A DNA stretch of 64,000 nt from Chiloscyllium plagiosum (lineage: Eukaryota), in contig NC_057715.1 in the NCBI RefSeq assembly GCF_004010195.1, forward strand, positions 18,775,950 through 18,839,949. Direction: 5' to 3'. The position numbers and the translations under genes are program-made. The notes under the pieces were generated by a model that was given only the letters and a program-made list of their open reading frames with translations, was not told the origin of the DNA and ran no database searches. Shown here one piece after another: positions 3,151 through 51,817 of this stretch. How positions within the stretch are numbered: position 1 is the first letter of the stretch; each line of letters starts with the position of its first letter.

Positions 3151-3460
3151 TGGCAATCAAAGCACTGGCTTCTTGTTCTGGAAGTGACTGGTGCTTGTGG
3201 ATATTGGGGTACACGCAAAAGAGGAAAAAGATTAGCTTGGACTGGGTTCCTTTCTGGGATATTTTGTTAATAATGTTGGGGAAAGTTTGAACTTAATCAG
3301 CAGGAGTGTTGGAAACAGAAGAGAATATTAAAACATAATATCACAGTGAGAGAGACAGGTAGTACTAAAATAAATATTAGTAAGCTAATATGTGGAGATG
3401 AAAGAAGGAAGAAGGTAGTGAAGTCTAAATTAGGGTTATGTTGCCTGTATGTAAATATAT

Positions 3461-3588
3461 GAGGAGAAAGTGAGGTCTGCAGATGCTGGAGATCAGAGCT
3501 GAAAATGTGTTGCTGGAAAAGCGCAGCAGGTCAGGCAGCATCCAGGGAACAGGAGAATCGACGTTTCGGGCATAAGCCCTTCTTCAGG
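3461..3588 (-). mobile_element. Stand-alone ~128-bp family A element (hammerhead plus tail)
   Basis: Flanked by ATGTAAATATAT (3449-3460) and ATGTAAATGTAC (3589-3600). It interrupts the CR1 endonuclease start. Confidence 0.85.
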
Positions 3589-3590
3589 AT
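3557..3590 (-). ncRNA. Minimal type-I hammerhead ribozyme, family A (best-preserved core)
   Basis: Minus strand reads AUC CUGAAGA A GGGC-UUAU-GCCC GAAAC GUC/GAU. Stem I is AUC:GAU and stem III is the palindrome ACGU. Confidence 0.8.
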
Positions 3591-4547
3591 GTAAATGTAC
3601 AATAATATAAGTATTAAGATAAAGGAGTTGCAGGTACAGATAAATAAATGTTTCATTCTTGTGGGATTATGAAGTGGCAATAACAGAGACCTGGGCTGAG
3701 GAAATGCAGGTCTAAGTATTAAATATTCCTGGTTTCAATTTGTTCTGAAAAGGTAGGGAAGGGTAAAAAAGGAGGAAGAGTGGTATTTTTGGCTGAAGAA
3801 AGTATTGCAGTACTGGAGATTCCTCGACAGAATCAATTTGGCTAGAAATACTGATTAAGAAGGGTGCAATAATATTGCTTGTCACAACTTACAGACCAGC
3901 AACTAGTAGGGTGGATGTACAGGAACAAATCTGCAGGAATTTACAAAGAGTTGCAACCATTTGGTTGTAGAGGGGAACTTTAATTACCTGTATCTAGACT
4001 GAGATAATGGTAATGTAAGGGGTAATGAAGGGCAGATGTTCCTAAATTGTGTTCAGGAAATTTTCTATATGAAAGGAGGCACTGGGTCTTGGAATGAAGT
4101 GGGCGAAGTCAAATTAAGCGTTAATGACATGGTATTTTTCAGCCAGGAGAAAGATTTCTAATGGAGTTCTCCTGGGATTAATATGCTTTTGCTTTTCTTG
4201 ATGTACATAAATGATCTAGGTCTTTGTGTACAGCGGACAATTTCAAAGTTTGCAGATGGCAGAAAATGTGGAAAAATCATAAACCATGAGGTAGACAATG
4301 TAAAACTTCAAAAGACATTAACAAGTTAGTTGACTGGACAGATAGGTAGCAGATGATGTTCAATGTGGAGAAATATGAGGGGATACCCTTTGATACAAAT
4401 AATGTGGAGTGACAGTGTGAAATGAAATGTACTATTCTAACGGACATGCATGGGTGTATATGTGTGTAAGTTATTAAAGATGGCAGGAGATTTAACGAGA
4501 ACTGTTAAAAATGACAATCAGTAATGGAGTACAAGGAAAGAAGTGAC

Positions 4548-4831
4548 GCGACACAGTGGATCAGTGGTTAGCACTGCTGCCTCACAGCTCCAGGAATGCG
4601 GGTTCAATTCCTGCCTCGGGCAACTGTCTGTGTAGAGTTTGCATATTCTCCCCGTGTCTGCATGGGTTTCCTCCAGGTATTCCGGTTTCCTCCCACAGTC
4701 CAAAGATGTGCAGTTTAGGTGAATTGGCCATGCTAAATTGCGCATAGCATTAGTCAGGGTAGGTTGTTCTTCGGAGGGTCGGTGTGGACTTGTTGGGCTG
4801 AAGAGCCTGTTTCCACACTGTAGGGAATCTA
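4548..4831 (+). mobile_element. HE1-like V-SINE
   Basis: tRNA head with A and B boxes, V-domain (GTTTGCATATTCTCCCCGTGTCTGC...CCCACAGTCCAAAGATGTGCAG) and CR1-like tail. Confidence 0.9.
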
Positions 4832-5948
4832 ACCAAGAGGAGTGTTATGCTGAATTTATATAGGACACTGGATAACTTACAGCTGGAGTATTGTGTACAG
4901 TTCTTGGTACCACATTTGGAAGAATGGTTCCGGGGATGAGAAACCTCAGTTATGAGGATAGTTTGGAGACTTTGGGACTGGTTTGCTTGAAGAGTAAGAG
5001 GTTGAGTGGAGATTTTAAAGAAGTTTTCAAATTCACGAGGTGTCGGGACACAGAAGATAGGGAGAAATCTGTTCCTGCTTGAACAAGGACCAAGAGTTTG
5101 AGGGCACACTTTCAAGTGGTTTGTATAAGAAACAACTATGAGATGAGAAAAAGAGAGGTTTTACACAGTGAGTGGCTGAGGTTTGCAAGGTACTGCCTGT
5201 AATTGTATTGGAGGTAGGTTCAAAGAAACAGTTTGTAGGTTATGGGGAAATAACAGGACTTTGGCACAAAATCAAAATGCTAAGAGAACGATTGCAAATA
5301 GAGTGGGCCAAATGGCCTGCCTCTTTACTGAAACAATTCTGTGATTCTGATCCTTGTGGCAACTCATAAGTAAGAATCTATCCACCTAAAAATGATTCAG
5401 TTACTCTCTGCTTTCAATCCTTCTATGATTAATTCATGCTACTGTATTGCCACCAACTCCAATGTGCCCTTACTATGACTAACAAGGTTGAGCGTGGCAC
5501 ATTATCAAATGCCTTTACTATTTCAACTTATTAGTTCACCAATGTTGGCTCTGTCTGGTCATAGTATGATTTTTTTCAAGTTCCTTGTTCATACTTAGTG
5601 AATAATAGATTTTACCATTCCTGACAACCGATAGGCTAATTGGCTATGGTTCCTTGTCTTCTTTTGTCTTCTTTTCTTGAATAATGATGTTTTGTTGGCT
5701 AACTTCTAATTTGTTCACACCATTCTTGAATCTGGGGAGTTTCGGAAGCTCACAGCTGCTGCACACATTGTCTTTGTAGCTGCTACTTTCGAATACTGGG
5801 ATGATGGCCATAAGATCCAGTTCCATTTAAATTCTTGATCCATTAATATCTCCAGTACCTTTGCATTTTTAACTATAATAACCTAATTTTCCTTACTATT
5901 TTTGTTAGTTAGCAAATCTTGATCAATGATACATGTCCTTATGTTATT

Positions 5949-6350
5949 GGGGAGGGGATTACCTAGTGGTATTACCTCAAAACTATTAATCTAGAAGTCT
6001 ACATAATGTTCTGAGGAAGGGTCACTGAACCTGAAATATTAACTCTGAGTCTCTTCACAGATGTTGCCAGACCTGCTGAGCTTTTCCAGCAACTTCTGTT
6101 TCCGTTGCTGATAATGTTCTGGGGAGACTTTGAATTTAATGCCAACTGTGGAATTGGGAGTCTAATGATGACCATGAAACTGTTGTTTCATATGGTTCAC
6201 TAATTCCCATCAGGAAAGGGAACTGCATCTTTACCTGTTCTGGCCTTCGTGTGACTCCGAATTCACAACAATGTGGTTGACTCTTAATTTGGGATGGGCA
6301 ATAAATATCAGCTGAGCCAGTGATGCCCATATCCCTTGAATGATTAAAAA
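5949..6350 (+). mobile_element. Short head-plus-tail derivative of the tRNA-headed LINE
   Basis: The 5' part matches 33043-33320. The 3' part GGGATGGGCAATAAAT...GAATGATTAAAAA matches the reverse complement of 34013-34075. Confidence 0.75.
6008..6110 (+). mobile_element. Stand-alone family E element starting with a hammerhead motif (6008-6043)
   Basis: GUU CUGAGGA AGGGUCACUGAACCU GAAA UAUU/AAC. TSD ATAATGTTCTG at 6003-6013 and 6111-6121. Confidence 0.8.
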
Positions 6351-7084
6351 CCTATAGTATTTGTGGGCTATTGATATTTAATTTCCATCATTTAATTTTA
6401 AATTTTGAGACTTTTGTGAATTCAAGACATTTTTAGAAGGACAAATACTAAACTAAGATGGTTGCAATGATCACCTGACCACAGATTGAGGCAAATCTAG
6501 CAGACCCATACAGTGTATACTAAGCTGGCTGAATTTCACTCAAAAACAATGAAATCAGACAAGTAAGTCAGCATGAAGAAATTTGCAATTCCTGCTTAAT
6601 TCATATTTGCTGGATAAGTCCACATATTGGACAATAAAGACTCTTGGCAGGTTATACAGCTGTGAAAAACAATGGATCTAGGCTCTGCCTCCTTCTGTCT
6701 GTTCTCTCTCCACTTCCACAGCCCACTGTTTCTCTTAATCCTTGAAGTCAGTGCCCAGTGAAAGAGAAACTTAGAAGAACAGTCATTCATGGAGAACTCC
6801 ATTTCACTATTGCTGAAGGAAATGTAATCATGGATTCAATTTTTCTTCCAACAGCTCCCAAACTAAGCCTCTAGGATCTTCAAATTGCTTTAACTCTCAT
6901 CTGTCTTTTTGTACTAGACACCTCTTCCACCTCTTTTTAAACTTATGACCAGTGTTATTCTGTGAGTTTGATGTCTTGTTCTTTTTTCTTGAGATTAATA
7001 CGTAGTAAACTTCCAATCTCTAGCTCAAAGAACAAGTTGGTGACTGGTTCCTTCATTTTGTTTAAGGAAACTATGCTTTCATTG

Positions 7085-7190
7085 AAATAATAACAGAAAA
7101 TGTTGGAGAAACTCAGCAGGTCTGGCAATATCAGTGGAGAGTGCAATAGAATTAACATTTCAAGTCTGAGATGACTTCTTTAGAACTGAA
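7085..7190 (-). mobile_element. Degraded family E pLTR fragment
   Basis: GAAACTCAGCAGGTCTGGCA...TTAACATTTCAAGTC...GACTTCTTTAGAACTG, with a decayed hammerhead core. Confidence 0.7.
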
Positions 7191-8139
7191 AGGGACAAGA
7201 GAACAACTGAACCACTGTATATGGTTTATACACTGTCAAAGGACACATGATAAGCCAATACAAAGAATAGACTAAACAGCATAAATTAAAAATCAGTGTC
7301 AATGATGTCCAAAATAGAGAGCCTCACAGGCCCAAGTAACTGTGACAAAGGAATGCTACATCTGTACAACTATAGGTCACTTCCAGAACATATGCCGAAA
7401 TAGGATGCAATTTCAGATCAGTAAAAGTCAAGTACCTAGTTATACAAAAATATTAGAGTAATTGAATTATAAAAGATACAATGTATTCCTTTGAGAAGTT
7501 GCTGATCCAGCTGAGTTACGTTTGGTAGAACCACTTTTACCAATGGACATCTTGTTGAGTGTAAGTCGGATGCTGGAGTGAGTTTTATTGTCTTGTAAGA
7601 TTGATTGCCATGGTTTAACAAACAGAAGGTACGGACTTACCAATCACATTGTCTGTTTTTATCCTGGAAAAAATCACCTGTAAATATGAGGTGATAATTT
7701 TGGAGAAGTAAAAATAAATTGCATTCACAAACAAAAATCATTTTGAAACTCACCAAACCATTTTGAAATAATAATGTCCACATAACGCTCCAATAGCAAA
7801 TAATAGAGAAGAGCTCAGCTAGGCAGGTCAAACGAAGAATACAGACACAAATAGAACCTTTATATCCACTGAACTGGCACAGATTGTATCAGATCTGAAA
7901 GCCCTAATTAAAGGTTGTTAACAGTGGCCTGTGAATAATGGTGACAGATTTAATCAGCATGAGAACAAATTAACTTCTTTCTTCTTGCTGATTTTCTTGC
8001 TTCCTCACTTGCCCTTCTGGAATTGATTAAACTTATGTCAGATCACCTCCAGTTCCTTATCCTTTGTTCACTCATGAGGGTGAAACTTGACATCAAGAAA
8101 AATCAGTTATTCAAATCCAGGTGAATTATATGGGCTGGA

Positions 8140-8530
8140 GTGATCCTTCAGTGAGTGTCAATTGTAACTTTGGGATTCTCAAAGTTTTGGATCCACATCC
8201 TACTTTAGAAATTGAGAGCAAAATCTAAGCTGACACTCTCAGAGTATTGCTGAGGGAGTGCTGCACTGTCTGAAGAGCTGCCTTTCAGATGAGATGTTAA
8301 ACTGAAGTCCCAAGCCCAATCAACTGGCTGTCTCAGATCCCACGGTTCCAGTTCAAAGAAGGGCAAGTGAGTTTTCTTTGACCAATGTTTATTACTCAAA
8401 CAGCCGTTATCATTCTTTTTGAAGCAGTTTGCTGCTGCTGTGTTCCCGTTTGAAACAGGGTGGACACTTTAAAAATACTTAATTGGTTATGAAGTGCAAT
8501 GGTTCATTCTGAACTCGTAAATGATGTGGG
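8140..8530 (+). mobile_element. Deu-domain SINE (SacSINE1/AmnSINE-like)
   Basis: GAGGGAGTGCTGCACTGTC...CTTTCAGATGAGATGTTAAACTGA...GATCCCA...AAGAAGGGCA core. Confidence 0.75.
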
Positions 8531-10129
8531 TTTTTCTTTCACTAACCTGCCATCTACATGCAGTGCTTTTGAGCAGATAAAGAAATAACAATCAGGAGGC
8601 AGGAAACCTGTTTAGTTATTTCCCATCCTTAACATAGGGCGTAGAGAATAAATACAATGCGTCTGTCTCTGACATACTTATCTCAACCCATTGCAAAGAG
8701 AGATTTTCAAGAATATTCAGGGGTGTGTCATATCATTTCTACAGTTTAAAGTAGTTTGTATTTTATATCTACTCATAATCTGAGAGCTTACATTTCAAAC
8801 TTCAGCTATTTAAGAGGGCTGCTCCTCTACTTGTGGTTGCATTTTAGCTCACCTTCCTGATCTAGGAAAGTATGTCAATGGACTGTGCTGCTTCTGGACA
8901 AGGCTGAATTAGCAGGTCCAGAATGAGCAGAGCCCTGTCGTTAGGGGAGCACTCTAGTTGACTACTTTTGTGGCATGGTATTGCCTGTATCTGGGTGGTC
9001 CTGAAGCAGGGCATGATATGCCAATGGGTATGCTGAAGATTGCATTTCATATGTCAATGACAATATCCTAACTAAATTGGTAAGCCCTTCTCTTTGGCTT
9101 ATTGAGTATATAAATCATGTGGGTATGTTTATGGTTCATTGCTCAAATCATTAGGTGTCCAATGGGCACTCAACATATAGTCCATATTTTATAAGAAAAT
9201 ACCTGTGAGGGTGATAGCACATCTACAAACATACCGCAGTGATCATCAGTTAGACATGGAGATCCAAACATTATGTCTGAGGTGGAACACCTTTTCTTTA
9301 GCTTCAGAAAAATGATATCTCATTCTCTGCTTCACCATTGAAATGTATGAAATGAACTGTACATTCAATATGTGAACTTGCTGTTTTGCATAATACACAA
9401 AAAGAATAGACAGATGATTTAAAGTCTAGGTACACATTTAAAGATGTGGTAGTATTACTTGCTATCTTGCTATCCGTCAACCAAATCTCACTGGCACTAA
9501 AAACGAACAATGACAAGTGTGCAGTTTCATTCTTACAGGTTGCAATTGTTGGAGCTTTACAACATGTTTTTGCTTTGCCATTCTCTCACATTTAATCTCA
9601 GCATGCTCTCCCTCATTTTCTTTTTCTGTACTAGGTTTGACATTGAATATACCTATTCTTAATTTTTAGTTTCCTTCAATATGTTGGATAATGTGATAAA
9701 CAGTTATTGCCACCTTCACTCAAGATCCAGATGTCCTTTCGGGAGCATCATGGTGTTTCCATTAGCCATCTCCAGCAATTTTCATTGATGTCAAGTGGGT
9801 GATGGGGAGCCGAACTAATTGACTCATCGTTTGTGATTCTGACACAGGACTTTCCAAGTCATTGACTTTGCATTTTCATTTGGTGATATTGTGCTGTCAA
9901 ATTTGGTGTTCAATTGCTGCAATCATAAAACTCCATCCCAGCTGAGGTTAGCTAATTTAATCTCTGATTAGGGATCAGACCTGCAAAATCTTTTCTCTCT
10001 GCTGTTGAAGAACAGAATAGGCACACCTTTACACTGAAAAGGGGAGGGGATTTACACAAATGTAAGATTTATCATCTTCATACAAAAGACATTGCATGTA
10101 CAGTTTGGGATCCTAAGAGAGCAGTTCAT

Positions 10130-10810: not shown

Positions 10811-11939
10811 GAAATATTGTCCCTCAGGCTTTTATTCAATCCAAAAAAGGCACCATTCCTTCACAAACTCCTTTACTCCTAATGAAAACAGTTCCTGTTT
10901 ATAAACCTAAATTTGTTGTTGGTGTAGCACTTTAATAAGTGTTGCCCTGTCATGTAATTCCATCTATTATCTCTGTTTTTATCTTAGTAACAATAAGTCT
11001 GAAGCTATATCGAAACTATCCAACGTTTCTCATTTACTTAAACTTTCTTTCAAAGTTTACTTTGTGAGTAGATACCAAAAATTTTCGAAATGTACCCTTT
11101 TCTCCGTTGTCTTCCCAAATAACTGGCAAAACCTTTATCTCTGTGTTCCTAATACACTGAAGGCAGTTCCAAATTTCACCGGATGTTAGCGCAATCCTCG
11201 AATGATATGACCTGCTGTATCATCCTTAGAAGATCTTGACACGATATTAAGCTACAGTTAGAATCCAACACTTGAATGCGAAGCCACAGGGGAAATCTTT
11301 CAGACCCAAAGCATATCATTTGCAGCAAAGAGGCAGGTGTCAGCATCAGTGAAGCAGAGAACAATATAATATATTTAGTATCAGAAATGGAAACAAAATA
11401 CTGTCACTTCACCACTGGGAATGATGAGAGGAAATATCTTCGTCTTCAGCCCTGGAGAATGCTAATTTACTGACAGAATGAAATATGGTTTACCTACACC
11501 AGGTGCAGCCAATATGGGCCCCTGCTTCTGATATTAGTTTTGAATTGATGTCTTTGCTCTGCAGTTGAAGGATGGGAAACAGCTGTAACAGAAGGAGGAG
11601 GTAAAGCTTTTAATTAGAATTTGAAGTGCAGTCAATTCTCCTCATAACTTATTTAGCTTGCAATTTTCAACACTTATCAAGAGAATATTATTCACAGAAC
11701 TTTGAATGGCTATGCTGACACTTTCTTCTCAAGTTTGAGAACAGAAGGTATCTTCTACATGACAAGCTAATTAATCCAGAAGACTTTGTTCAGAGTTTTA
11801 CAAGTGTCCCCCCAGTTTTCCCTTTAATCGAGAAGTAGCTTATCTCACTGTCAGAACATCAATTCTCAAGAGATGTTTTATCAAAAGGAAAGTATGCTGT
11901 AAATATGAAACATTTTAAGCTATCAATCTTGCCCCAGCA

Positions 11940-12230: not shown

Positions 12231-12492
12231 ACTGGATGAGTGCTTCCGATGCCCAGATTAATGCTCTGGGGATAAAAACAGGAAGTGTGGGAAGTACTGG
12301 AAGCATATGTGGAGACAGAAGCAAAGTTAGGTTTTGGGTATGGGTACATGTGTTCACACCCCACTATGATTGCCAGTGGAATATTTTATAAAAATCCAAA
12401 TTAACTAATCTTATTTTTGTGAAGTTATTGCATAAATGCAATGCGAATTATATTATGTCATGTTGGAAAAAAAACAATAAAAATTCAATGGA

Positions 12493-12952
12493 TTACATCA
12501 GACAAACTAGCAGGAAACTTGCCACCAGGATAAATGAACACCAACTAGCCAGCAAAAGACATGACCGGCTATCACTAGTTTCTATACATACAGATGAAGA
12601 AGGACACCACTTTGACTGGGACAACACACACATCCAAGGACAGGTGAAACAAAGACATGCACAAGAATTCTTCCAGGCATGGCATTCTAACCAGAACTCC
12701 ATCAAAAAACACATTGATTTAGACTCTATCTACCTTCCCTTGAGAAAAAAGAGCCGGAAATGATATCACCAACCTTAAGAAACCAAAGCCTATAAATAGA
12801 GAGGTGGGACATACCACCAGCATCACTGGAAACTCTCACTGATGATGTTACCTAGTATGATGACGAAATGTCTGAAAACAAATCTTCGAGCTCAGTGAGC
12901 TAATTTACATACTTATCATCAACATGAGCTACAAATATTCTCAAAAATCGTT
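12493..12952 (+). mobile_element. PLE family B: GIY-YIG endonuclease C-terminus and pLTR
   Basis: YIRQTSRKLATRINEH...HHFDWD...QEFFQAWHS. Possible degenerate TSD AATTCA(A)TGGA at 12482 and 12953. Confidence 0.9.
12836..12875 (+). ncRNA. Minimal type-I hammerhead motif, family B
   Basis: UCA CUGAUGA UGUUACCUAGUAUGAUGAC GAAA UGUC/UGA, with stem I UCA:UGA. Confidence 0.75.
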
Positions 12953-14660: not shown

Positions 14661-15108
14661 GCCTGGAGGAAGAAAGTCTCATCTTCTGCATCAGGACCCC
14701 CCAACTCCAGGGCATCAATGTGGATTTCACCAGTTTCCTCATTTCCCCTCCCTCCACCTTATTCCAGATCCAACCTTCCAAATCGCATCTCATGACCTGT
14801 CCTACCTGTCCATCTTCCTTCCCATGTATCCGCTCCACCCTCCTCTCTGACTTATCACCTTTACCCCTACCTCCGTCTACCTATCGCACTCTCAGCTACC
14901 TCCCCCTACCCCCCACACATCAACCCCACACACCTCCCCCTTCCCATTTATCTCACCACCCCCTCAGCTTACAAGCCTCATTCCTGATGAAGGGCTTTTG
15001 CCCGAAACATCGATTCTCCTGCTCCTCGGATGCTGCCTGACCTGCTGTGCTTTTCCAGCACCACACCCTTGACTCTAATCTCCAGCATCTGTGGTCCTCA
15101 CTTTTGCT
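14661..15108 (+). mobile_element. PLE family A: GIY-YIG C-terminus and complete pLTR
   Basis: LEEESLIFCIRTPQLQGINVDFTSF, then a pyrimidine-rich UTR, hammerhead and tail. Confidence 0.9.
14980..15015 (+). ncRNA. Minimal type-I hammerhead motif, family A
   Basis: AUUC CUGAUGA A GGGC-UUUU-GCCC GAAAC AUC/GAUU. Confidence 0.75.
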
Positions 15109-15569
15109 TCGAGGAATATGGACCAATCACAGGTAATGGGACTAGTTCAGCTTCGGAAAACTGATTGGCATGTCCGAATCAGGCTGAAATGTGTATTTCT
15201 ATACTGTATGACTCTATGACTCTATTTTGAGCAGTTACTATTCACAAAAGACCTCTACTGTAGCTCACTTACTTTCATTCCTTCCCTTCTTACCAATCCT
15301 GCTTGCACCTTCTCCAATCACAGGCTCTTTTTCTTTCACACTTCTGATTCACTAAGAGCCTATCAGCAGCAACGAGAGAGTACCAGCCTGTGGTTGGACT
15401 ACCTCACCATTCCTATCCATTCCACTTACAGGGATGACTTTTGTCATGGTTTCTCTCATGATTCAATTTTCCTTGGTATTTTGGAGATCTTGGTGGTAAT
15501 TGACTCACCACGTCCATGTAGTTTCATCTCTAGTAAAATTACTACGGGTCAGGGTAAGGAAGGAGACCC

Positions 15570-17430: not shown

Positions 17431-17679
17431 CCCTTTTTCTCGAATGCAAAACCTAGGCTTATCTTTCTTTTCTTAATGTCTTAAATTATTGAAATGTCAG
17501 TGATGGGTGCAATTACTGTAGTATCCAAGAATCCAGAAAAATCATTCTGTACTGTAACCTTATTGAGAGCTCTAACAATATATCTCAGTCCTTTCCATTA
17601 ATACCGATAAATAAGTTGTATTGGATGTTTCAAGTTCAGAGCAATCTGTAAAATGATTCCTGATAAGAGAAGCTCTGAT

Positions 17680-17990
17680 ATAAAAATGGAAAAGGCTGGA
17701 AAGCACACAACAGTTTGGTGAAGGGAGAGGAAGTGTTAATATTCAGTGTGATGACCTTTCATCAGTGCTGGAGGAAGTTAAAGATATAACAATCTTTAAG
17801 CAAACGTTGAGCCAGGGAGAATTGACATTCTTGGAGGAAAGGGCAGGTTTGTGATAAGGTGAAAGACAAGAATAATGAATGGACATTGACCTGAAATGCC
17901 AGCTCTATTTCTGTCTCTATGGATGCTGAGCGTTTCAAGCATTTTTATTTTTATTTCATATTTACAGCGTTCATCATAATTTATCTTTGA
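17680..17990. mobile_element. Two old family E-like pLTR remnants in inverted orientation
   Basis: Minus-strand CTGATGAAAGGTCATCAC near 17748-17765, and plus-strand GACCTGAAATG...GGATGCTGAGCGTTTCAAGCATTT from 17888. Confidence 0.5.
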
Positions 17991-18367
17991 TTAAGCATCT
18001 AAAGGAATGATGACTCAAAACAAAAAGGGACTGGTGAGAGAAACAAAATGTGGTGTTTACTGGACTTGCTTTGATTCCCCCATACTATGAGCACAAAAGC
18101 ACTGGATATGTTTGTAGATGTTTATGGATGAAACTTCCTCAGGATTCCAATTGATTCTTTCAGTTACTCCATGAAATTTCCTGCGTTTCAGTAAATTAAC
18201 ATTGCAAATGATTCATTTCTTTTTGAAGTATTAATTCCAACTACCTATTACATGGCCTTTATTAAGCTGCCATTCCTTGTTTAAAATGCATCATTGTGAA
18301 CTCTCACACAAGAATAACTAACTGATATTTAAAGTCTGTAACCAAGAATACTGCCACAATTTGACCT

Positions 18368-18491
18368 CAGGTTATAGTCCAACAGCAGTCCGAAAGCTTG
18401 TGATTTCAAATAAACCTGTTGGACTATAACCTGGTGTCATGTGACTTCTGACCTTGTCCACCCCAGTCCAACATTGGCTTGTCCACAGCGT
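18368..18491 (+). mobile_element. Short PLE family C insertion with an 18-bp 5' inversion
   Basis: TSD AATTTGACCT at 18358-18367 and 18492-18501. 18368-18385 is the exact reverse complement of 18416-18433. Confidence 0.85.
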
Positions 18492-22520: not shown

Positions 22521-22713
22521 CCAGCGCATTCCACATTGCTGACTTTTAAAGACACATTGATCAAATTCCCTCTTTATCAAAGGATCTAAGGGCAGAGTAT
22601 GGTTATGGTAGATGGATGAGGTAAAAACAATGACTGCAGATGCCGGAAACCAGATTCTGGATTAGTGGTGCTGGAAGAGCACAGCAGTTTAGGCAGCATC
22701 CAAGGAGCAGCGA

Positions 22714-22749
22714 AATTGACATTTCGGGCATAAGCCCTTCATCAGGAAT
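22714..22749 (-). ncRNA. Hammerhead motif, family A
   Basis: AUUC CUGAUGA A GGGC-UUAU-GCCC GAAAU GUC/AAUU. Confidence 0.7.
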
Positions 22750-22808
22750 AAAGGCAGTGAGCCTGAAGCGTGGAGAGATAAGCTAGAGGAGGGTGGGGGA
22801 GGGGAGAA

Positions 22809-23573: not shown

Positions 23574-23735
23574 GTCCTACCTGCCTAACTCCTTTTCCAC
23601 CTATCCACTCCACCCTCTCCTCCCTGACCTATCACCTTCACCCCTCCCCCACTCACCCATTGTACTCTATGCTACTTTCTCCCCACCCCCACCCTCCTCT
23701 AGCTTATCTCTCCACACTCCCGGCTCACTGCCTTT

Positions 23736-23771
23736 ATTCCTGATGAAGGGCTTTTGCCCGAAATGTCGATT
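23736..23771 (+). ncRNA. Hammerhead motif, family A
   Basis: AUUC CUGAUGA A GGGC-UUUU-GCCC GAAAU GUC/GAUU. Confidence 0.75.
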
Positions 23772-24639
23772 TCGCTGCTCCTTGGATGCTGCCTGAACTG
23801 CTGTGCTCTTCTAGCACCAATAATCCAGAATATGGTAGATGGATGTTCATTCATATTTTTTTAATGCAATATTTTCTATTCTCTGGCATTCCAACTATCC
23901 CTTTGATATTCATTTTGCCATCCTGGTCAGACATCCTAAGTCATACAGTTACAATGGACAGATAATTTAAACAAGAACCAAACATGAAACTGATTGGAAT
24001 GCCTGATCCTTGGAAAATCATTATTTAATTTCATGCCAGAATCTCATGTGGTATGGGAATTCCACATTGCTACATGATCATACCTTCCCCACATTGTGCA
24101 ACACGAAGATGCATTTTGGGTGATATATTGAAAACATTTTACTCAATGTCTACTAATATCACTTGGCCGCATAGAATTACATAGAAAAGGCAGAGAGAAG
24201 GTTCATGTGGCTCAACAAGTCCATGCTAAATTTTTGTATTCAAACCTCTTTGTGTCCTTCCTCAGCTAATCCTCTATTATCTTCTCTGTCACGCATTTGC
24301 AATTTGTTTTAAACTCATTTTGTGGTAGCTAATTCCGCATTTTCACTAGTCTCTGTTGAAGTAAGTTTTTCTTGTATTTCAAGTTTAAATCTGAAGACAC
24401 TCATCAAATGAATCTAGGAATTAAACAGTAAAATTTAAATCAGAATCCAAGCTGTATGAGAATTTGAAATTTTGTTGGGAGTAAGTTCTCAGATAGTTTT
24501 GTAGACAAAAAGAGGAGTGAAATTGTTTTACCAGTCTTTGCTATACCTGCACCTGTAAGGTTGTTTACTGACGATTAGATGTCTGGAAGCCAAAGGGTGT
24601 ATGGTCCTCAAGAACCCTTTGTTGCTGTAAGATTAAAAA

Positions 24640-36250: not shown

Positions 36251-37071
36251 GTATAATAAGGTGAGATGGCAGGATACCTGAACACTGCCACCATCTGCCC
36301 TCTGTCCGAATTAAATTTTGGTCAGGAAGGCCCTTGATCCACCTTCATGTCCTGTCATTTGAGAACCTTAAATCTCCAATCTTCCCATCTTGAATCCTAT
36401 CCTACCACCCGATGAAGAGGCTGCACCTCGAAAGCTCATGCTTCCAAATAAACTTGGCAGAAGTGAGGACTGCAGATGCTAAAGAGTTGAGTTGAGGAGG
36501 CAGGGTGGGAGGAGGTGTAATCTCTAAAATCCTGTAAAAATGCTATCCCGTATTCCCAATTTCTCCGCCTCCGCAGCATCTGGTCCCAGGAGGACCAGTC
36601 CCAACACTGAACACACCAGCTGGCTTCCTTCTTTAAAGACTATAATTTCCCCTCCCATGTGGTTGATGATGCCCTCCAGTGCATCGCATCCACTTCCCGG
36701 ACCTCTGCCCTCGAATCCCACTCCTCCAATTGCAACAAGGTCCTCACCTTCCACCCTACTAATGTCTGTATACATCGTATCATCCTCTGCCAATTCTGCC
36801 ACCTATGAACAGACACCACCACCAGAGATATATTTCCCTCTCCACCCCTATCCGCTTTCCGTAAAGACTGTTCCCTCCGCAACTACCTCGTCAGGTCCAC
36901 GCCCCCCACCAACCACCCTCCTCTCCCACACCTTCCTCTGCCACCGCAGAAATTGCAAAACCTGTGCCCACACCTTCTCCCTCACCTCTGTCCAAGACCC
37001 CAAAGAAGACTTCCACATCCATCAGAGTTTCACCTGCATTTCCACACGTCATTTACTGTATCCATTGCTCC

Positions 37072-37199
37072 TTTTGCATGGACGTACATGGAATAGTGTA
37101 GGTTAGATGGGCTTCAGATTGGTATGACAGGTCGTTGCAACATCGAGAGCCGAAGGGCCTGTACTGCGTTGTAATGTTCTATGTTATAATGTTCTATAT
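37072..37199 (+). mobile_element. CR1 3' UTR inserted in the PLE endonuclease
   Basis: Matches 53435-53546 and ends in ATGTTCT repeats. Confidence 0.85.
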
Positions 37200-37700
37200 G
37201 ATGCGGTCATCTCTATTTTTGGGAGACAGGATGCCTACTCGCAGAGCGCTTCAGAGGACATCTCCGGGACACCTGCACCAACCAACCCCACAGCCCCATG
37301 GCTAAACACTACAACTACTCCTCCCACTCCGCCAAGGACATGCAGGTCCTGGGCTTCCTCCATCGCCACTCCCTCACCACCTTACGCCTGGAGGAAGAAC
37401 GCCTCATCCTCCACCTCGGAACCCTCCGACGCCATGGCATCGATGTGGATTTCACCAGTTTCCTCATGTTCCCTCCCTCCACCTTACCCCAGTTCCAAAT
37501 TTCCAACTCAGCACCGCCCTCATGACCTCTCCTATCTGTCTATCTTCCTTCCCACCTATCTGCTCCATCCTCTTCTCCGACCTATCATCTTTACCCCCAC
37601 CTCCATCCATCTATTGCACTCTCAGCTACCTTCCCCCAGCCCAACCCCAATCCATTTATCTCTCCACCCACGAGGCTCCCAGCCACATTCCTGATGAAGG

Positions 37701-38013
37701 ATTAGATTAGATTACTTACAGTGTGGAAACAGGCCCTTCGGCCCAACAAGTCCACACCGCCCCGCCGAAGCGCAACCCACCCATACCCCTACATTTACCC
37801 CTTACCTAACACTACGGGCAATTTAGCATGGCCAATTCACCTGACCTGCACATCTTTGGACTGTGGGAGGAAACCGGAGCACCCGGAGGAAACCCACGCA
37901 GACACGGGGAGAATGTGCAAACTCCACACAGTCAGTCGCCTGAGGCAGGAATTGAAGCCGGGTCTCTAGCGCTGTGAGGCAGCAGTGCTAACCACTGTGC
38001 CACCGTGCCGCCC
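37701..38013 (-). mobile_element. Young HE1-like V-SINE inserted in hammerhead stem II
   Basis: Full head GGGCGGCACGGTGGCACAGTGG, V-domain and (TCTAA)n tail. CTGATGAAGG lies to the left and GAAATGTC to the right. Confidence 0.92.
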
Positions 38014-38179
38014 TTCAGCAGAAATGTCCATTTTCCTGCTCCTCGGATGCTGCCTGATTTGCTGTGCTTTTCCAGTGCCACACTCTCAATTCCGAATAAA
38101 CCTGTTGGACTATGAGCTGGTGTTGCATGATTTTTTACTGTATCTTGATTTTTTTCTCTCTTTGTTTGGTCCCTTTCCA

Positions 38180-39128
38180 TTTTATATACATGATTGTCCT
38201 GATGCTTTAAGGCAGTTTCAAAATCTCCATTTCGAGAGCCTCTGCAGCTTCCTCTTCACCATGGGCATACAATTCTTTTACACGTCCATTCCCCCAACAG
38301 GGCAGTCTCAGAACTCTTCCTCAAGAAAAGGCCTGATCTGTCCCCATCTATCAAGACCCTTCTCTGCTTGGCTGAGCTTGTCCTCATTTTGATTTGAACA
38401 ACTTCTCGTTTAGCTCCTCTCATTTTCACCTGATCAAAGGTGTGGTCATGTGTCCCCACATGGACCCCAGTTATGCCCTGCCTCTTTGTGAGGTATGTGG
38501 AACACTCTTTGTGGATCACTTCCAATGACTCTTTCTCCGGTACATCCATGACATTATCGGTGCTGCTTCCCTCTCTTGGGCAGGATTGGAAAAGTTTATT
38601 AATTTCGTTTCCAATTTCCACCCTGCTCTCACTTTCATCTTGTCCATCTCTTATTCCTGCCTTCCCTTCCTCAACATTTCTCCTTCCATTTCCGGAGATA
38701 GGTTGGCCACTGATAACCATTACAAACCCACCTGCTCCCACAGTTACCTGGATTCTCCATCCTCACACTCTGAATTTGTAATTTTAGAACCTGAACACCT
38801 TCTTTCATGTTTTTTGCCCACCCCCACACCTCAGGTCCTGTCTTGAAGTGGCCCACTTCCAGAACAGCCAACACATTTTCACCTGTTATCAGCTCTTCTT
38901 CCTCCCTGGTTTATCATGATCTATCCCTTTATCTGCCTCACTGTCTTTCTGTCCCTCTGGGCTCTGTTTTTCCCTGTCCTTTCCCACACCCTCCCTTCAG
39001 CATATATAACACTTTTTTCTAGCTACTATCAATTCTGTAACAGGGCGCAAAAGATTAACTCTGCTTTCTCGCCAGAGATGCTGCTAGACCTGCTGAGTTT
39101 CTCCAGCCATTTCTGCTTTTGTTCTTTT
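38180..39128 (+). mobile_element. Degraded, internally deleted PLE (RT region and family E pLTR)
   Basis: PSYA/CLFVRYVE, RYIHDI, FVSNFHPALTF, LPFLNI and YKPTCSHSYLD RT motifs, with the family E tail at 39055-39125. Confidence 0.85.
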
Positions 39129-39162
39129 TGCAAACTTGTCGTCGTTTTATTGCATTAGGTTT

Positions 39163-40049: not shown

Positions 40050-40445
40050 ACCCCCCACTCTCCAGACTGTAACACTGGCCTCACCCTCGCTGCGGTCAGT
40101 CCCCACCCCGCAGACAATACCAAAGCCCCCCCCCCCCCCCCCCCCCCCCCCCCGCTGGTTATAATCTCTTCCAACCTCTTCGTTCGGGCAGAAGATATAA
40201 AAGCTTAAACGCATGGACCAAGAGATTAAAGAACAGCTTCTTCCCTGCTGTTATTCAACTTCTAGATGGACCTCCCAAATTTCAAATTTAACCCCCACCC
40301 CTCCAGGCTGTACCATAGGCCTCACCCTCACTGCTATTTGCCCCCACACCCCACACTGCACCATAGGCCTCACCCTCACTGGTGTCTGCACCCACACCCC
40401 AGGCTGTACCATAGGCCTCACTCTCACTACTGTCGGCCCCCACCT
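40050..40445. repeat. 48-bp minisatellite (3 tandem units at about 40292-40440 plus one separated unit) and a C28 run at 40126-40153
   Basis: CATAGGCCTCAC recurs at 40314, 40362 and 40410. Confidence 0.85.
40155..40290 (+). mobile_element. Rex1/Babar-like LINE C-terminal fragment
   Basis: GYNLFQPLRSGRRYKSLNAWTKRLKNSFFPAVIQLL. Confidence 0.8.
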
Positions 40446-41082: not shown

Positions 41083-41470
41083 GGCAAAATGGTGGCTCAG
41101 TGGTTAGCATGGCTGCCTCACAAATAGGGACCCGGGTTCAATTCCAGCCTCGGGCCACTGTCTGTGTGGAGTTTGCACATTCTCCCTCTATTTGCGTGGG
41201 TTTCCTCTTGGTGCTCTGCCACTGTCTGTGTGGAGTTTGCACATTCTCCCTCTATTTGCGTGGGTTTCCTCTTGGTGCTCTGGTTTCTTCCCACACTCCA
41301 AACATCTGCAGGGTTGGTTGATCGGCCATGCTAAATTGGCCATAGTGTTCAAGGTTAGGTAGATTAACCATGGGAAATGCAGGATTACAGTGATAGGATG
41401 GGTCTGGGTGGGATGTTCTTTGGAGGGATGGGCTGAATGTCCTGCTTCCAACTGTAGGGTTTCTACAATT
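41083..41470 (+). mobile_element. HE1-like V-SINE with an internal perfect 64-bp tandem duplication
   Basis: A and B boxes are present, and 41154-41217 is identical to 41218-41281. Confidence 0.9.
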
Positions 41471-41559
41471 CTATAAATCTCACCTCATTGATATGTAGTT
41501 TCCTATTGTCCCACCAGAGACTAGAACTATGGCAGTTCCCATCACGAGAGTCAGAGCAT

Positions 41560-44815: not shown

Positions 44816-44816
44816 A

Positions 44817-45854: not shown

Positions 45855-47150
45855 TGATTCAGTGATGGATGTCACTGGCTAGGCCATCGTTTATTGCTCA
45901 AATGCTAATTGCTCTTGGGTAGGTGATGATGGGCTGTCTTCATGAACCATTGTAGTCCATTCAGTGTAAGTACACTCACAGCATTGTTGTGGAGAGAGTT
46001 CCAGGAATTTGTCCCAGTGACGGTGAACAGACTAAGATACAGTTCCAGGCCAGGGTGGCGTTTGATTTGGAGGATAACTTACTGATGTGGTATTGTTACC
46101 TTGAATCTGCTGCATTAGTTCTTCCAGGCAATAGAGGTCTTGAATTTGTTTTTTTTTGCATTCATTCATGGGATATGATGTCGATGGCTGGGCCAGCATT
46201 TATTGACCATCTCTAGTTGCTATTGAGAAGCTGGTGGTGAGCTGCCTTTTTTGAACTGCGGCAGTCTGTGTGCTGTAGGTAGACTCCTCAATGGTGTTCG
46301 GGTGGGAGTTCCACATTTTGTCTCAGCAAGATTGAAGGAACGGTAATATATTTTCATGTCAGATGGTGAACTTGCCATTGGCTGGTGCTCCCCTGTCCTT
46401 CTATATGGAAATGGTTGTGTGTTTAGTAGGTGCTGTCTGAGGATCTTTGGTGAATTTCTGCAATGCATCATGCACACTGCTTTTACTGAGTGTCAGGAGC
46501 TGAAGGTTCATGGATGTGGTGCATCTAAGGCTGGCGAAAGTGAGGACTGCAGATGCTGGTGATTAGAGTTGAGAGTGCGGTACTGGAAAAGCACAGCAGG
46601 TCAGGCAGCATCCGCGGGGCAAATGCTATTTCGGGCAAAAGCCCTTCATCAGGAAGCATCGAAGGAAGTCTTGGCAAATTGTGGTTGGTATATACTACAA
46701 CCACGTTGTGCCAGTAGTGGAGGGATTGAATGTTTAAGATGATGTATGAGGTGCTGATCAAATGATTTGCTTTCTCCTGTTTGGTGTGGAGCGTTTTGAC
46801 TGCTGTTGGAGCTTCACTCTGACTGGAAAGTGAAGTTATTCCATAACATTCCTGACTTGTAGATGATGGACAGGTACTGGGGAGTCAAGACGTGAGTTAC
46901 TTGCTGTAGAATCCTTACTTTTAACATGCCAGAGTATTTTTATGGCTGGTTCAGTTATATTCCTGGTTTCAGGATGTTGATAACAGAGGATTCAATGATG
47001 TTTATGCCATTGAATGTCAAGGGGAGCTGGTTAGACTCTTCTTAGTTGGAGATGAATATTACTTGGCACTCGTTTGGCCTGAATTTTACTTGGTACTTGG
47101 TATCCCAAGCCTGAATACTGCCCAGTTCTTGCTACATATAGCCATAGACG
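45855..47150 (-). mobile_element. Two nested or tandem 3' fragments of the tRNA-headed LINE
   Basis: Colinear with 34013-34820. MHCRNSPKILRQHL in ORF 46220-46477. Confidence 0.8.
46531..46655 (-). mobile_element. Stand-alone 125-bp family A element (hammerhead plus tail)
   Basis: Minus strand TTCCTGATGAAGGGCTTTTGCCCGAAA, with the cleavage-site region disrupted. TSD GCATCTAAGG (46521-46530) / GCATCGAAGG (46656-46665). Confidence 0.85.
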
Positions 47151-47729
47151 ATTACAGCATCTCTGGAGGCAAAATAGAACAGAACACTGTTAAATCATTT
47201 TTTATTTTTTGGAACACTTGAAATAAAATGGAAGAATTGACTAGGCTAGAATCTGAGCTTAAAGCAATGAATGCATACCACAGGGGATTCTGAAGATAAA
47301 AAATAAACATGTCAGGGCATTTAGGTGCTGGACATGTAAGCACAGCTACCAGAAAAAAATCCAGACTCAAAATAGAAGCACCATTTGCTCTGTTGGCCTT
47401 TAATCATCTTAAGCATTTCAGTAAGATCGTCCATTAATCTGCAATACTCACAGGAATACAAGTCAAGACTGTGGATCCTATCCCCATAATTTAACCCCTC
47501 TGACCCTGATTCAAAAGAAATGGAATGCTGTTTCCAGTACATCTTGAGTCATTAATGTTTCCTGCCACCAGACCCCTCCTCCCCAACATCTCAGGATATA
47601 GAACCTCTGCTGCATCATTTTTATTTTATTTTCACAAATTAGTCTTAATTAAACATGTGTTAATCAGGCATAATGTTGTTTTGGGGGAAGATGTTAAAGT
47701 TAAGTCTGTGAGGTTACCCATTATACCTG

Positions 47730-47950
47730 AGGAGCAATGGTTTCTGGGAAGATCTAACATTGAAAAAAGAGACCATTCCACAAACAGCAATGCACTAATG
47801 ACCAGATTGTCTGTTTTGTTTGAGATTAGTTGAGGACTCTGATGAACTCCCCTGCTCATCTTTGAAACAGTACCACAGGATATTTTGCATTCGCCCAAGA
47901 GAGCCAATGGGAATTTGGTTGAACATTTCATTGGAATGGCAGCATTGAAA
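47730..47950 (-). mobile_element. Deu-domain SINE fragment
   Basis: GAACTCCCCTGCTCATCTTTGAAACAGTACCACAGGATATTTTGCAT. Confidence 0.65.
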
Positions 47951-48654
47951 TGACAAATGAGTTTGGGAATTGTTACTGATTTGAAAATGGAGAAAATGGT
48001 ACTGGCAGTGACTGCGTTGACATGACCACGGCTTGATACTGACCTGTTTGTATAATTTGAAAAGATAATAACACAGCTGAGAGGCAGAACAATATTCTGA
48101 GGAATGAGTGAGCAGTAAACAGAATTTTGAGAACAGTCTACTACAACAAAGTTCTCTTTACAATTCATCTTATCTTTGTCTGCAGACATTTTACTTATAT
48201 TAAATTTGTTGGCACAGCCCTAAGGTGCTATGTTCACGTAGATATGGAAAAGATAAATAGCTTACCAATGAAAGAGAATGACAGCTAAGATTAATACATC
48301 AAGCGCACCAGAATAAATGGGGAAAGGAATCTTGAGCTGTTTTTGTTTTAATCATTTGCAAACTATTAAAAATCCTATCCTGTGCTCTGAGACTAGTTTT
48401 AGAAATATCCATGCTAGGTATCAGTGATTTTATTTTACTCCAATCTTTGTCTTTATTCCTGAAGGTGAATTTTGTTCTTTCTTAAACCCAACCACATTGG
48501 GTTTTGTTACTTTACTCAAGTGACTGTTTTTAAATTGCAAAGTGCTTGTTTGTTCAACTTGCAGGATGCAGCATGTTCACATATCAGCATGGCGATAACA
48601 GTGGGATCTGTTTCATGATACTCCTGCTCTGACAGTTCCCCCTTTCTTTCGGTG

Positions 48655-48925
48655 TTAGCTGCAGCTTAGTTGGTAGTAATTTGCCACTGAGTCAGAAGAT
48701 TCAAGTCCCAGTCCAGGACTGGAGCAAAACAATTGAGTTTGACATTATAGTGTAATGCATTAGAAGTACCTAATTTTTTCAGATAAGATGTACTTGATAC
48801 CCCTCAAGTCTGCCTCTGCAGCCGGTTGAAAAGATATCACCATATACTTTATTGAGGAACAACAAATGAATATTGTTGAAAAGAGAGATACATTGCTAAA
48901 CTTTTTCATCTCACAGCCATCAAGA
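48655..48925. mobile_element. Deu-SINE (plus, 48655-48870) followed by a family D pLTR remnant (minus, 48871-48925)
   Basis: TAGCTGCAGCTTAGTTGGTAG head and TCAGATAAGATG core. Minus strand TCTTGATGGCTGTGAGATGAAAAAGTTTAGC is a decayed hammerhead. Confidence 0.6.
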
Positions 48926-49969
48926 ACTGGATGAACTTGGGAACATTCGGGAGGCAGAGACAGTCATAGGTAAAAGCTCCAATGAGGTGGTTACTCCTAG
49001 AAATGAAGATAGTTGGGTGACTGTTAGAAAAGGTAAAAAGCAATCAGTGCAGGTATTCCCTGTGGCCATTCCCCTGTATAACAAGTATACCGTTTTTAAT
49101 ACTGTTGGGGGGCTCGACTTACCAGGGGTAAGCCATTGGGTATAGGTCTCTGTCAAAGAGTTTGTCCCTGTTGCTCAGAAGGGAAGCAGGAAGAGGAGCA
49201 GAGCATTAGTCATTGGGGACTCCTTAGTTAGGGGGAACAGATAGCTGATTTGATGGGAACTAAAGATACCCGCAGCTGGTGTGTTGCCTCCCAGGTGGCA
49301 GGCTCTGTCATATCTCGGATTGTGTTTTTGGGATCCTTGAGGGTGAGGGGGAGCATCCCCACATTGTGGTTGACATTGTAACCAACGACATAGGCAGGAA
49401 TAGTGATAAGGGGATGGAAGGCAGTTATTCAGGGAGCTGGGGGGAAGCTTAGAGCTAGAACAAATAGAGTTGCTATCTCTGATTTGTTACCTGTACCACG
49501 GGGCAAGGAATAGGGAGAGAGAGCAGTTAAACACGTGACTACAGGAATAGTGCAGGAGAGAGGGATTCAGATACCTGGATGATTGGAGCTTATTCTAGGG
49601 TGAGTGGGACGTCTACAAACAGGATGGTCTATACTTGAACCAGAGGGATACCAATATTGTGGGGGGGAGATTTGCTGATGTTCTTTGGGTGGGTTTAAAC
49701 TAACTCAGTAGGGGGATGGGAACCTGAATTGTAGCTCCAGTGTACAGGAAGTTGAGAGTAGTGAGGTCATGAATAAAGTTCCAAGGTTGCAGGAGTGTTC
49801 TGATAGGCAGGAAGGTGGTTTGAAGTGTGTCTACTTCAACGCCAGGAGCATCCGGAATTAGGTGGGTGGATTTGCAGCATGGGTTGGGACTTCGATGTTG
49901 TGGCCATTTCAGAGACATGGATGGAGAAAGGAGAGGAATGGTTGTTGCAGGTTCTAGATGTTTCAGTAA

Positions 49970-50644
49970 CTGGATGTAAGTTTGTTTGTTGAGCTGGAAG
50001 GTTCGTTTTCAGATGTTTCATCACCATTCTAGGTAACATCATCAGTGAGCCTCCATTGAAGCACTGGTGTTAGTGACCCACTTTCTATTTATGTATTTAG
50101 GTTTCCTTGTGTTGGTGATGTCATTTCCTGTGGTGATGTCATTTCCTGTTCTTTTCCTCAGAGGGTGTTTAATGGGGTTCATGTCAATGTGTCTGTTGAG
50201 TTGGAATGCCATGCTTCTAGGAATTATCGTGCAATTCCCTATTTGACTTGTCCTAAGATGGATGTGCTGTCCCAGTCAAAGTGGTGTCCTTCCCTATCTG
50301 TATATAAGGACACTAGTGAGAGTGGGTCATGTCTTTTTGTGGCTAGTTGATGTTCATGTATCCTGGTGGCTAGTTTTCTGCCTGTTTGTCCAATGTAGTG
50401 TTTCTTGTAGTTCGTGCAAGGTATTTTGTAAATGACATTAGTTTTGCTTGTTGTCTGTATAGAGTCTTTCAAGTTTGTTAGCTGCTGTTTTAGTGTGTTG
50501 GTGTGTTTGTGGGCTACCAAGATGCCAAGAGGTCTGAATAGTCTGGCAGTTATTTCCGAGATGTTTTTGATGTAGGGGAGAGTGGCCAGGGTTTTTTGAT
50601 GCGTTTTGTCTGCTTATTTGTGTTTGTTACTGAGAAACTCGCTA
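49970..50644 (-). mobile_element. PLE family B (GIY-YIG endonuclease and pLTR) inserted in CR1
   Basis: NVIYKIPCTNYKKHYIGQTGRKLATRIHEH. Perfect TSD ATGTTTCAGTAA at 49958-49969 and 50645-50656. Confidence 0.93.
50009..50048 (-). ncRNA. Hammerhead motif, family B
   Basis: UCA CUGAUGA U GUUACC-UAGAAU-GGUGAU GAAAC AUC/UGA. Confidence 0.72.
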
Positions 50645-51549
50645 ATGTTTCAGTAAGATCAGGGAAGGTGGTAAAAGAGGGGGAAGTGTGGCATTATTAG
50701 TCATGGACAGTATTACAGTGGCAAAAAGGACATTTGAGGACTCATCTATTGAGATAGTATGAGCTAAGGTTAGAAACAGGAAAAGAAAAGGTCACCCTGT
50801 TGGGAATTTTCTCTAGGCCTCTGAATAGTTCCAGAGTTATAGAGGAAAGGATTGCAAAGATGATTCTGGATAGGAGCGAAAGTAACAAGGTTATGGGGTC
50901 TGAAACTTTCCAAATATTGACTGGAAGCGCTATAGTTCGAGTACTTTAGATGAGTCAGTTTTTGTCTAATGTGTGCAGGAGGGATTCCTGACACAGTATA
51001 TAGATAGGCCAACAAGGGGCGAGACCATATTGGATTTGGTACTGGGTATTGAACCAGGCCAGGTGTTAGATTTGGAGGTAGATGAGCACTTTGATGATAG
51101 TAACCACATTTCGGTTATGTTTACTTTAGCGATGGAAAGGGATAGGTATATAGCGCAAGAGTTATAGTTGGGGGAAAGGCAGTTATGATGTGATTGGGCA
51201 AGATTTAAGATGCATAGGATGGGGAAGGAAACTGCAGAGGGTGGGCACAATCGAAGTGTGGAGCTTGTTCAAGGAACAGCTACTGCATGTTCTTGATGTG
51301 TATATACCTGTCAGGCAGGGAGGAAGTGGTCAAATGAGGGAACTGTGGTTTACTAAATAAGTTGAATCTCTTTTCAAGAGGAAGAAGGATGCTTATGTAA
51401 AGATAAGAAGTGAAGGCTCATTAGGGCACTTGAGAATTACACGTTAACCAGGAAGGACCTAAAGAGAGAGCTAAGAAGAGCCAGGAGGGGACATGAGAAG
51501 TCTTTGGCAGGTAGGATAAAAAAAAACAAAAGCTTTCGATAGGTTTAGG

Positions 51550-51817
51550 ATTCCTGATGAAGGACTTATGCCTGAAACATTGATTCTCCTGCTCCTTGAT
51601 GCTGCCTGACAAAAACAGCCTCAAGACCCTCAGCCTTTCCTCATAAGACGTTCCCTCCATACCAGGTAATGTTCTGGTAAATCTCCTCTGCACCCTTTCC
51701 AATGCTTCCACAACCTTTCTATAATGTGATGACCAGAACTGTACGCAATACCAAGTGCTTTTCTAGCACTACACTCTCGACCCTGATCTCCAGCATCTGC
51801 AGTACTCATTTTCTCCT
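51550..51817 (+). mobile_element. Family A hammerhead-headed short element carrying an inverted CR1 patch (51611-51754)
   Basis: ATTCCTGATGAAGGACTTATGCCTGAAACATTGATT...CCTGAC[patch]GTGCTTTTCTAGCA...TTCTCCT. Confidence 0.85.

Follow-up and report, generated by a model that had tools for sequence, protein, structure and literature searches.

Within a 64,000-nt stretch of the Chiloscyllium plagiosum genome (contig NC_057715.1, positions 18,775,950 to 18,839,949; the window hereafter), many short copies of a hammerhead ribozyme motif begin at the front edge of the ribozyme core. These copies, here called stubs, match the end module (hammerhead plus tail) of long Neptune-type Penelope-like retrotransposon copies, and all five that a preliminary description of this DNA had named begin within about 5 nt of the CUGANGA core. 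The clustering of starts is genuine and not random, and belongs to an element class that is already known; the stubs are best read as by-products of these elements; they do not look like a separate family of ribozyme circles, but like a record of the template 5' end, the front-edge start likely marking where the copied RNA begins.

Starts of the short hammerhead copies

Counting the C of CUGANGA as +1 (other positions are window coordinates), the five named copies start at -1/-2, -3, -4, between -3 and +4, and at about -5, in agreement with the 0 to 5 nt upstream of the core given in the preliminary description. Three of them are bounded by target-site duplications (TSDs), as had also been claimed, with 10/11, 9/10 and 11/11 matching positions, values equalled by 1, 2 and 0.5% of 400 random flanks, respectively; the same test was not significant for the copies at 51550 (46%), 36404 (18%) and 7183 (36%). 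At the 6008 stub, TSD and core share 6 nt of microhomology, and the 5' end is consequently placed only to -3/+4. The statement that the core is followed by the pseudo-long terminal repeat (pseudo-LTR) tail and nothing else held in so far as the stubs match the end module, whereas the copies at 51550-51817 and 36404 are interrupted by later inserts, the former at about 51611-51752 by ~140 bp of inverted CR1-type long interspersed element (LINE) DNA.

A census by BLAST and profile searches, independent of the hammerhead core, yielded 22 copies, which fall into four groups; 18 could be scored (those at 11333, 12270, 17673 and 17876 were excluded as too decayed). Nine of the 18 are long, six start at -6 to +4, and three start apparently at +10 to +20; two of the long copies run into a gap of N, and two of the three starts at +10/+20 are decayed and uncertain. 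The insertions listed earlier are real, but the list had omitted the nine long copies and the three with apparent starts at +10 to +20. A family E-related copy (7084..7189) is a probable sixth stub. Under smooth exponential truncation, the chance of finding six of 18 ends in an 8-nt window is 7e-5 to 3e-9, and a harsher count (five of 22 in 11 nt) gives 0.008 to 3e-6, both windows having been picked post hoc, with the data already seen. The 5' ends are clustered, as had been proposed. The predicted cut site in family A lies at +28/+29, so that self-cleavage would place starts about 30 nt further in and does not account for the clustering; among the 18 scored copies none starts at +29 and none between -7 and -60.

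The preliminary description had asked whether short copies form their own clade, and this was not borne out. The three family A stubs are 82.8, 86.2 and 86.1% identical to the long copy at 14984 and 80.5, 82.8 and 79.5% to one another; each is thus nearer, or equally near, to the long copy than to the other stubs, and no mini clade is seen among the three. Judged from these comparisons, they do not appear to have the clade of their own and the fixed ends of a discrete non-autonomous family resembling short interspersed elements (SINEs). Furthermore, the window contains no tandem array of the hammerhead unit.

Parent elements and end junctions in public runs

The minimal hammerhead (core, 4-bp stem II, GAAA, cleavage triplet), recognised by pattern reading, is present in long and short copies alike, several of them with changes in core or triplet; Rfam gave no family for the motif at its gathering threshold. 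Judged by their sequence, the parents are endonuclease-bearing (EN+) Penelope-like elements, with reverse transcriptase (RT) and C-terminal GIY-YIG, linker, hammerhead and tail. The open reading frame (ORF) remnant at 37205-37519 has 326 relatives, of which the long ones (P0106, P0085, P0047, P0065) carry RVT_1 and GIY-YIG and map back onto 36527-37468; by itself, the remnant had no Pfam GIY-YIG match, and a homologous-protein search at E 1e-10 gave no match. Long copies with ORF remnants of this kind exist in families C and E as well. A CX2-5CxxC linker before GIY-YIG marks Neptune and Nematis elements (PMC8557442; this and the other works cited are drawn upon from excerpts). The family A ORF carries a CX4CxxC linker (CHRRNCKTC) and family C a decayed form, and no CX2-5CxxC linker was seen in the family D copies. 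Assignment to Neptune rather than Nematis follows the host range that we presume for each.

An optional tail and inverted copies are both in evidence: a 36-nt tail lies inverted at 36457-36492, 3'-side junctions peak at 15064-66 and 15104, and two copies stand head to head at the assembly gap. Eight of 150 relatives were aligned to ask whether the tail encodes the ORF start; they were distant, and none matched a tail. A 32-nt block (15029-15060 and 6060-6091) is 90% alike in families A and E, which diverge elsewhere; it lies immediately upstream of the first 3' end zone and is a candidate enzyme recognition element.

Four public runs (X1, X10, X21 and X23) were matched at 80% likeness to the long copy at 14700-15120. 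X1 and X10 are contig DNA runs from two organisms (X10 from the second), and X21 is a raw-read RNA run (single-cell poly(A), 2% sampled). Depth per bin over this reference did not serve as an end map, since families have the middle block in common and subfamilies differ in the upstream region. Among the best six rows per run (1,554 further rows; counts saturated in X1 and X10), the biggest 5'-side loose ends sit at 14979/14980, that is, -5/-4, with 809 and 839 in X1 (of 22,173 partly fitting records; the next 5'-side row among those listed is 444 at 14789), 848 and 965, plus 665 at 14981, in X10 (of 25,258), and 89 and 132 in X23. In the contig runs, the loose letters at 14980/14981 are AT-rich, with an agreement of 0.30-0.32 and a median length of 209-255, as expected of unrelated flanks. 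On the 3' side there are two junction zones, one at +81 to +88 and the other at about +121 to +127, and their spacing of about 40 nt agrees with the known optional tail. The rows at 15064-15066 and 15104, approximately one tail apart, mix true ends and subfamily differences.

Position 14980 is also the landing point of both head-to-tail and inverted joints. Head-to-tail joints from 15066 to 14980 (+83 to -4) were found in 11 contigs of X1 and 15 of X10, where junctions at -5/-4 number about 1,650 and 1,800, and in 0 of 3,706 reads of X21, a poly(A) library that would miss circles. The inverted joints link -4/-5 with +29 (15012, the first base past the predicted cut) in 12+12 and 2+7 contigs, and could stem either from occasional templates that had been cleaved or from helix I affecting the alignment. 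The search of public runs listed no RNA runs with copies, which has no bearing on expression, and pattern scans for further copies found 0 in viral contigs and 0 in each of two scans of metagenome contigs. Nine prokaryote-genome loci from the pattern scans were taken as chance, their matches spanning only 20-34 nt with no repeat context.

Origin of the front-edge start

We consider it an even call that the stubs are Neptune-type end modules primed inside the repeat and run off at an RNA 5' end at about -4, probably a capped start. The Poseidon enzyme of the anole primes at two internal sites that lie downstream of the hammerhead, takes uncut RNA as its template and leaves a tail signature (PMC11167929), and Penelope is transcribed from an internal initiator-type promoter in the upstream repeat (PMC2377424). 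If the transcript begins at -4 in the upstream repeat, its 5' end would be just 85-125 nt away from the priming sites of that repeat; priming at these sites would yield a short run-off copy, similar to retroviral strong-stop DNA and then integrated, and priming in the downstream repeat would yield the usual long copies of variable truncation. The parent element's own enzyme would insert the stubs, which would be by-products and not self-propagating, and ribozyme cleavage would not be required.

The initiator consensus is YYANWYY, and a similar motif with its A at -4 occurs in three of four long family A copies and three of three E/F copies, against a background of 1.2% per position. Capped full-length L1 insertions are marked by an extra 5' G (PMC11702581); here, X1 and X10 have a consensus G directly before 14980, and two of the four listed joints landing on 14980 have a single intervening G. 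These motif and letter patterns are hints in favour of a capped start at -4. A downstream promoter element (DPE)-like match at about +28 relative to the proposed start was given no weight: the match is weak, and helix III needs the same letters. A splice acceptor was likewise rejected as the source of the 5' edge, AG being present only in E/F and the listed joints that skip to 14979-14980 lacking GT..AG ends.

Several observations weigh against a capped start at -4. The initiator-like motif is found at this position in none of three family C/D copies; X21 and X23 have T as the letter preceding 14980, and in the two remaining listed joints the final letter is A. The two TSD-bounded stubs starting at -1/-2 and -3 have no extra G, and the G at 51549 may be target DNA. 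Since -4 is also the outer edge of helix I, position alone cannot tell a start site from a protected end. Besides, the Drosophila virilis start lies 120 nt upstream of the intron 3' end, where helix I maps (PMC2377424, PMC4209133), so a layout with the start at the hammerhead edge is not general. The window contains no full-length copy, and hence no upstream repeat was seen continuing into an ORF; no site where many molecules begin was listed, the sole raw-read RNA run being the poly(A) run X21. In X21, the letters preceding 14980 match the 3' untranslated region (UTR) of a second subfamily (agreement 0.46), and the rows at 14979 are pyrimidine-rich, from which it follows that subfamily divergence contributes to the peak. 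Finally, the end counts cover only the best rows per run, saturated in X1 and X10, and the full distribution may differ.

The main rival to a capped start is an exonuclease roadblock, which we regard as unlikely: enzyme and priming would be the same, but the 5' end would arise from 5'-to-3' decay stalling at a folded or protein-bound hammerhead, and any transcribed copy could feed stubs. This would account for ends that coincide with the outer boundary of helix I in several families unrelated to one another, among them family C without the initiator-like motif, and the -6 to -1 spread fits trimming; in addition, the anole enzyme helps its hammerhead fold (PMC11167929), and an HDV-type ribozyme fold resists exonucleases (PMC11371274). 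Yet decay predicts no extra G, of which there are hints, and folding of the monomer is weak (z-scores of -2.1 to +1.1 in seven copies), with a helix I of only 3-4 bp. Weak folding, except in stem II, also bears on a stall of the RT at the folded ribozyme, one of the two origins proposed in the preliminary description, which fits poorly: by inference, such a stall would leave ends 3' of the fold (about +29 to +35), while the copies traverse the whole motif. The better fit is a template whose defined 5' end lies shortly ahead of the motif. Drop-off there, or a template starting at the self-cleavage site, agrees with the three window copies apparently starting within the motif (+10 to +20) and with the inverted joints that link -4/-5 with exactly +29, but most short copies contain the entire motif, no window copy starts at +29, and +29 is not among the best loose-end rows, which makes this origin the least probable considered here.

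The other proposed origin, a discrete non-autonomous mini-element or tiny retrozyme copied once round a circular or ligated RNA from tandem master copies, is improbable. The head-to-tail joints in DNA contigs are what it would produce, and tandem non-LTR retrozymes derived from these repeats are reported in vertebrates, one chondrichthyan included (bioRxiv 10.64898/2026.07.22.740005). However, such joints are few and absent from the X21 reads (with the caveat on circles given above), neither a mini clade nor a window array was found, stubs occur in at least three families, each with long copies, and two 3' end zones with scattered 5' ends do not suit a single unit length. We give similarly little weight to an end made at the DNA level, by the element nuclease trimming at the ATT at -4 or by microhomology joining copy to target there. 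The anole nuclease prefers ATT (PMC11167929), family A has ATT at -4, and the 6011 copy shows 6 nt of microhomology; nevertheless, none of the three TSDs ends in ATT, the 46652 copy has no microhomology, families E and C have no ATT there, and the ATT at +30 is not among the listed loose-end rows. It is very improbable, lastly, that the stubs reflect random 5' truncation, with the peak an artefact of seeking hammerheads and of alignments ending at subfamily divergence. That divergence does contribute (the X21 row at 14980 and the 14979 rows), the sample is small with four copies unscored, and solo motifs are attributed to truncation in PMC4209133; against this, three ends are fixed by TSDs independently of alignment, the census did not use the core, and P is <=0.008 even at 5/22.

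Extending the run-off reading, it is doubtful, if conceivable, that the hammerhead of these elements marks the template start and does not cut the RNA, its first helix overlapping the transcription start, that strong-stop-like copies of the first 85-125 bases are integrated routinely, and that some stubs or their head-to-tail dimers are re-transcribed and seed more stubs, which would give a SINE-like class driven by RNA polymerase II and a route to the birth of tandem retrozymes.

Relation to known systems and other copies in the window

The element class, solo hammerheads, tails, inverted copies and solo repeats are already known. Solo minimal hammerheads, mostly dispersed, have been ascribed to truncated Penelope-like elements (Cervera and De la Pena, 2014; PMC4209133), and the metazoan pseudo-LTR hammerheads of that work share with ours the type I minimal motif, in which helix I is short, helix III is palindromic and one base ahead of stem II is unpaired; in the excerpts of that paper copy ends are not mapped, whereas here many copies start at the 5' edge of the motif and are themselves TSD-bounded insertions. 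Neptune-type EN+ elements (Arkhipova et al., 2013, PMC3846280; Craig et al., 2021, PMC8557442) have in common with the present ones a GIY-YIG preceded by the CX2-5CxxC linker, copies that are often truncated at the 5' end or inverted head to head, an optional tail of 30-40 bp at one end or the other, and TSDs of about 8-10 bp. Rotifer solo repeats without TSDs were put down to recombination or deletion (PMC3846280), in contrast to stubs with TSDs and a fixed 5' edge.

In the anole Poseidon element PAc (Frangieh et al., 2024; PMC11167929), the hammerhead lies ~100-150 nt upstream of two RT start sites bounding the tail, as here, and an AC-rich start zone and uncut RNA as template are also shared; PAc belongs to another clade, its ORF starts in stem II, and neither run-off stubs nor a 5'-end peak are described in the excerpted text. 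Non-LTR retrozymes (PMC7229834; Li et al., 2026, bioRxiv 10.64898/2026.07.22.740005) are likewise non-coding, with a type I hammerhead and pseudo-LTR kinship, and are likely mobilised by the same enzymes as the stubs. Retrozymes form tandem arrays that give rise to circular RNA (150-450 bp, PMC7229834; 51-972 bp, bioRxiv 10.64898/2026.07.22.740005), while the stubs occur as dispersed single units of 90-130 bp whose sequences nest among those of long copies. The literature consulted described neither a peak of 5' ends at the front edge of the hammerhead nor Penelope stubs of strong-stop type, although supplements or Repbase may do so.

Cleavage by the hammerhead of Penelope-like elements is unneeded in vitro, and anole RNA yielded no cleaved ends, according to the excerpts of PMC11167929. 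Independent insertion junctions serve as a record of template ends, here pointing to the front edge of the motif and not to the cut site. If the run-off model is true, it would account for the abundance of solo minimal hammerheads in animal genomes and tie the internal priming result to a genome-scale footprint.

Copies with hammerhead motifs in the window, with their duplications and landmarks (C of the core = +1)
Feature	Coordinates	Strand	Description
Family A stub	3460..3588	-	starts -1/-2, core C at 3587; extends to tail end
TSD of this stub	3449-3459 / 3589-3599		10/11 match; 1% of random flanks equal
Family A stub	46531..46655	-	starts -3, core C at 46652; cleavage triplet region decayed, 5-nt deletion
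TSD of this stub	46521-46530 / 46656-46665		9/10 match; 2% of random flanks equal
Family A stub	51550..51817	+	starts -4, core C at 51554; G precedes; lies within CR1-type RT reading frame
Family E stub	6008..6110	+	5' end between -3 and +4
TSD of this stub	6003-6013 / 6111-6121		11/11 match; 0.5% of random flanks equal
Family C stub, left half	36404..36456	+	starts about -5, core at 36409
Family C stub, right half	38090..38140	+	resumes past 1.6-kb family A insertion
Family E-related copy	7084..7189	-	likeness to long E copy begins about -6; no TSD
Long family A reference copy	14661..15107	+	ORF end, 3' UTR, then TCATTCC, core, cut site, tail to 15107
Landmarks of reference copy	14980; 14984-15007; 15011		A (-4) of initiator-like TCATTCC; core; cut after 15011
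First 3' end zone of reference copy	about 15064-15071
Long family A copy inside family C stub	36457..38089	+	Neptune-type; TSD 13/15; ends at +88
Family A second-subfamily copy	22620..22808	-	enters N gap; at least 63 nt upstream of core
Partner copy across gap	23574..23836	+	94% alike to 22620..22808; at least 166 nt upstream of core
Decayed family A copy	390..470	+	clear likeness from +10 to +20; true 5' end uncertain
Long family E copy	845..1000	-	reaches upstream of core at 958
Long family E copy, internal deletion	38141..39125	+	decayed RT segment
Long family C copy	56861..58055	+	Zn-linker and GIY-YIG remnant, 3' region, decayed hammerhead at 57950, tail
Short family C copy	18362..18490	+	starts about +10; inverted 24-nt piece of itself in front
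Long family D copy	12392..12945	+	GIY-YIG remnant, hammerhead at 12839
Long family D copy	49965..50613	-	GIY-YIG E=0.0012, below Pfam cut-off; no Zn linker seen; hammerhead at 50045

The window is repeat-rich, with 13.6 kb of its 64 kb recurring inside it, and LINE-type RT remnants are present. The LINE piece at 51611-51752 is 92% like 53026-53171 of the surrounding LINE, 1.4 kb off, and 76-80% like other copies; it replaces about 5 nt of the stub without a TSD and looks like a locally templated insertion. The region 36404-38140 presents three levels of nesting, in which the family C stub contains the 1.6-kb family A copy and the latter a ~310-bp repeat (37702-38015) splitting its hammerhead in stem II. 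We take this repeat to be SINE-like. The left end of the same family A copy consists of the inverted 36-nt tail and about 26 nt of inverted coding DNA, followed by decayed RT-thumb, Zn-linker and GIY-YIG segments, the 3' UTR and the split hammerhead, with a further 105-bp repeat (37088-37192) in the ORF. The family A copy begins (36493-36530) at the same RT spot (aa 218-221 of P0047) where the neighbouring deleted family E copy (38141-38775) breaks off, and about 26 nt of this spot are those inverted at the left end of the A copy; the shared breakpoint may be a coincidence or a break hotspot.

Between 22620 and 23836, a young head-to-head pair, 94% alike, stands on either side of a 765-nt gap of N, which is probably an assembly break caused by the inverted repeat. 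Two decayed E-like copies are also head to head at 17673-17968, one of them with a recognisable core at 17765(-). In addition, a 48-bp unit is repeated 3.1 times at 40292-40443, and an exact 64-bp duplication lies within a SINE-like copy at 41154-41282.

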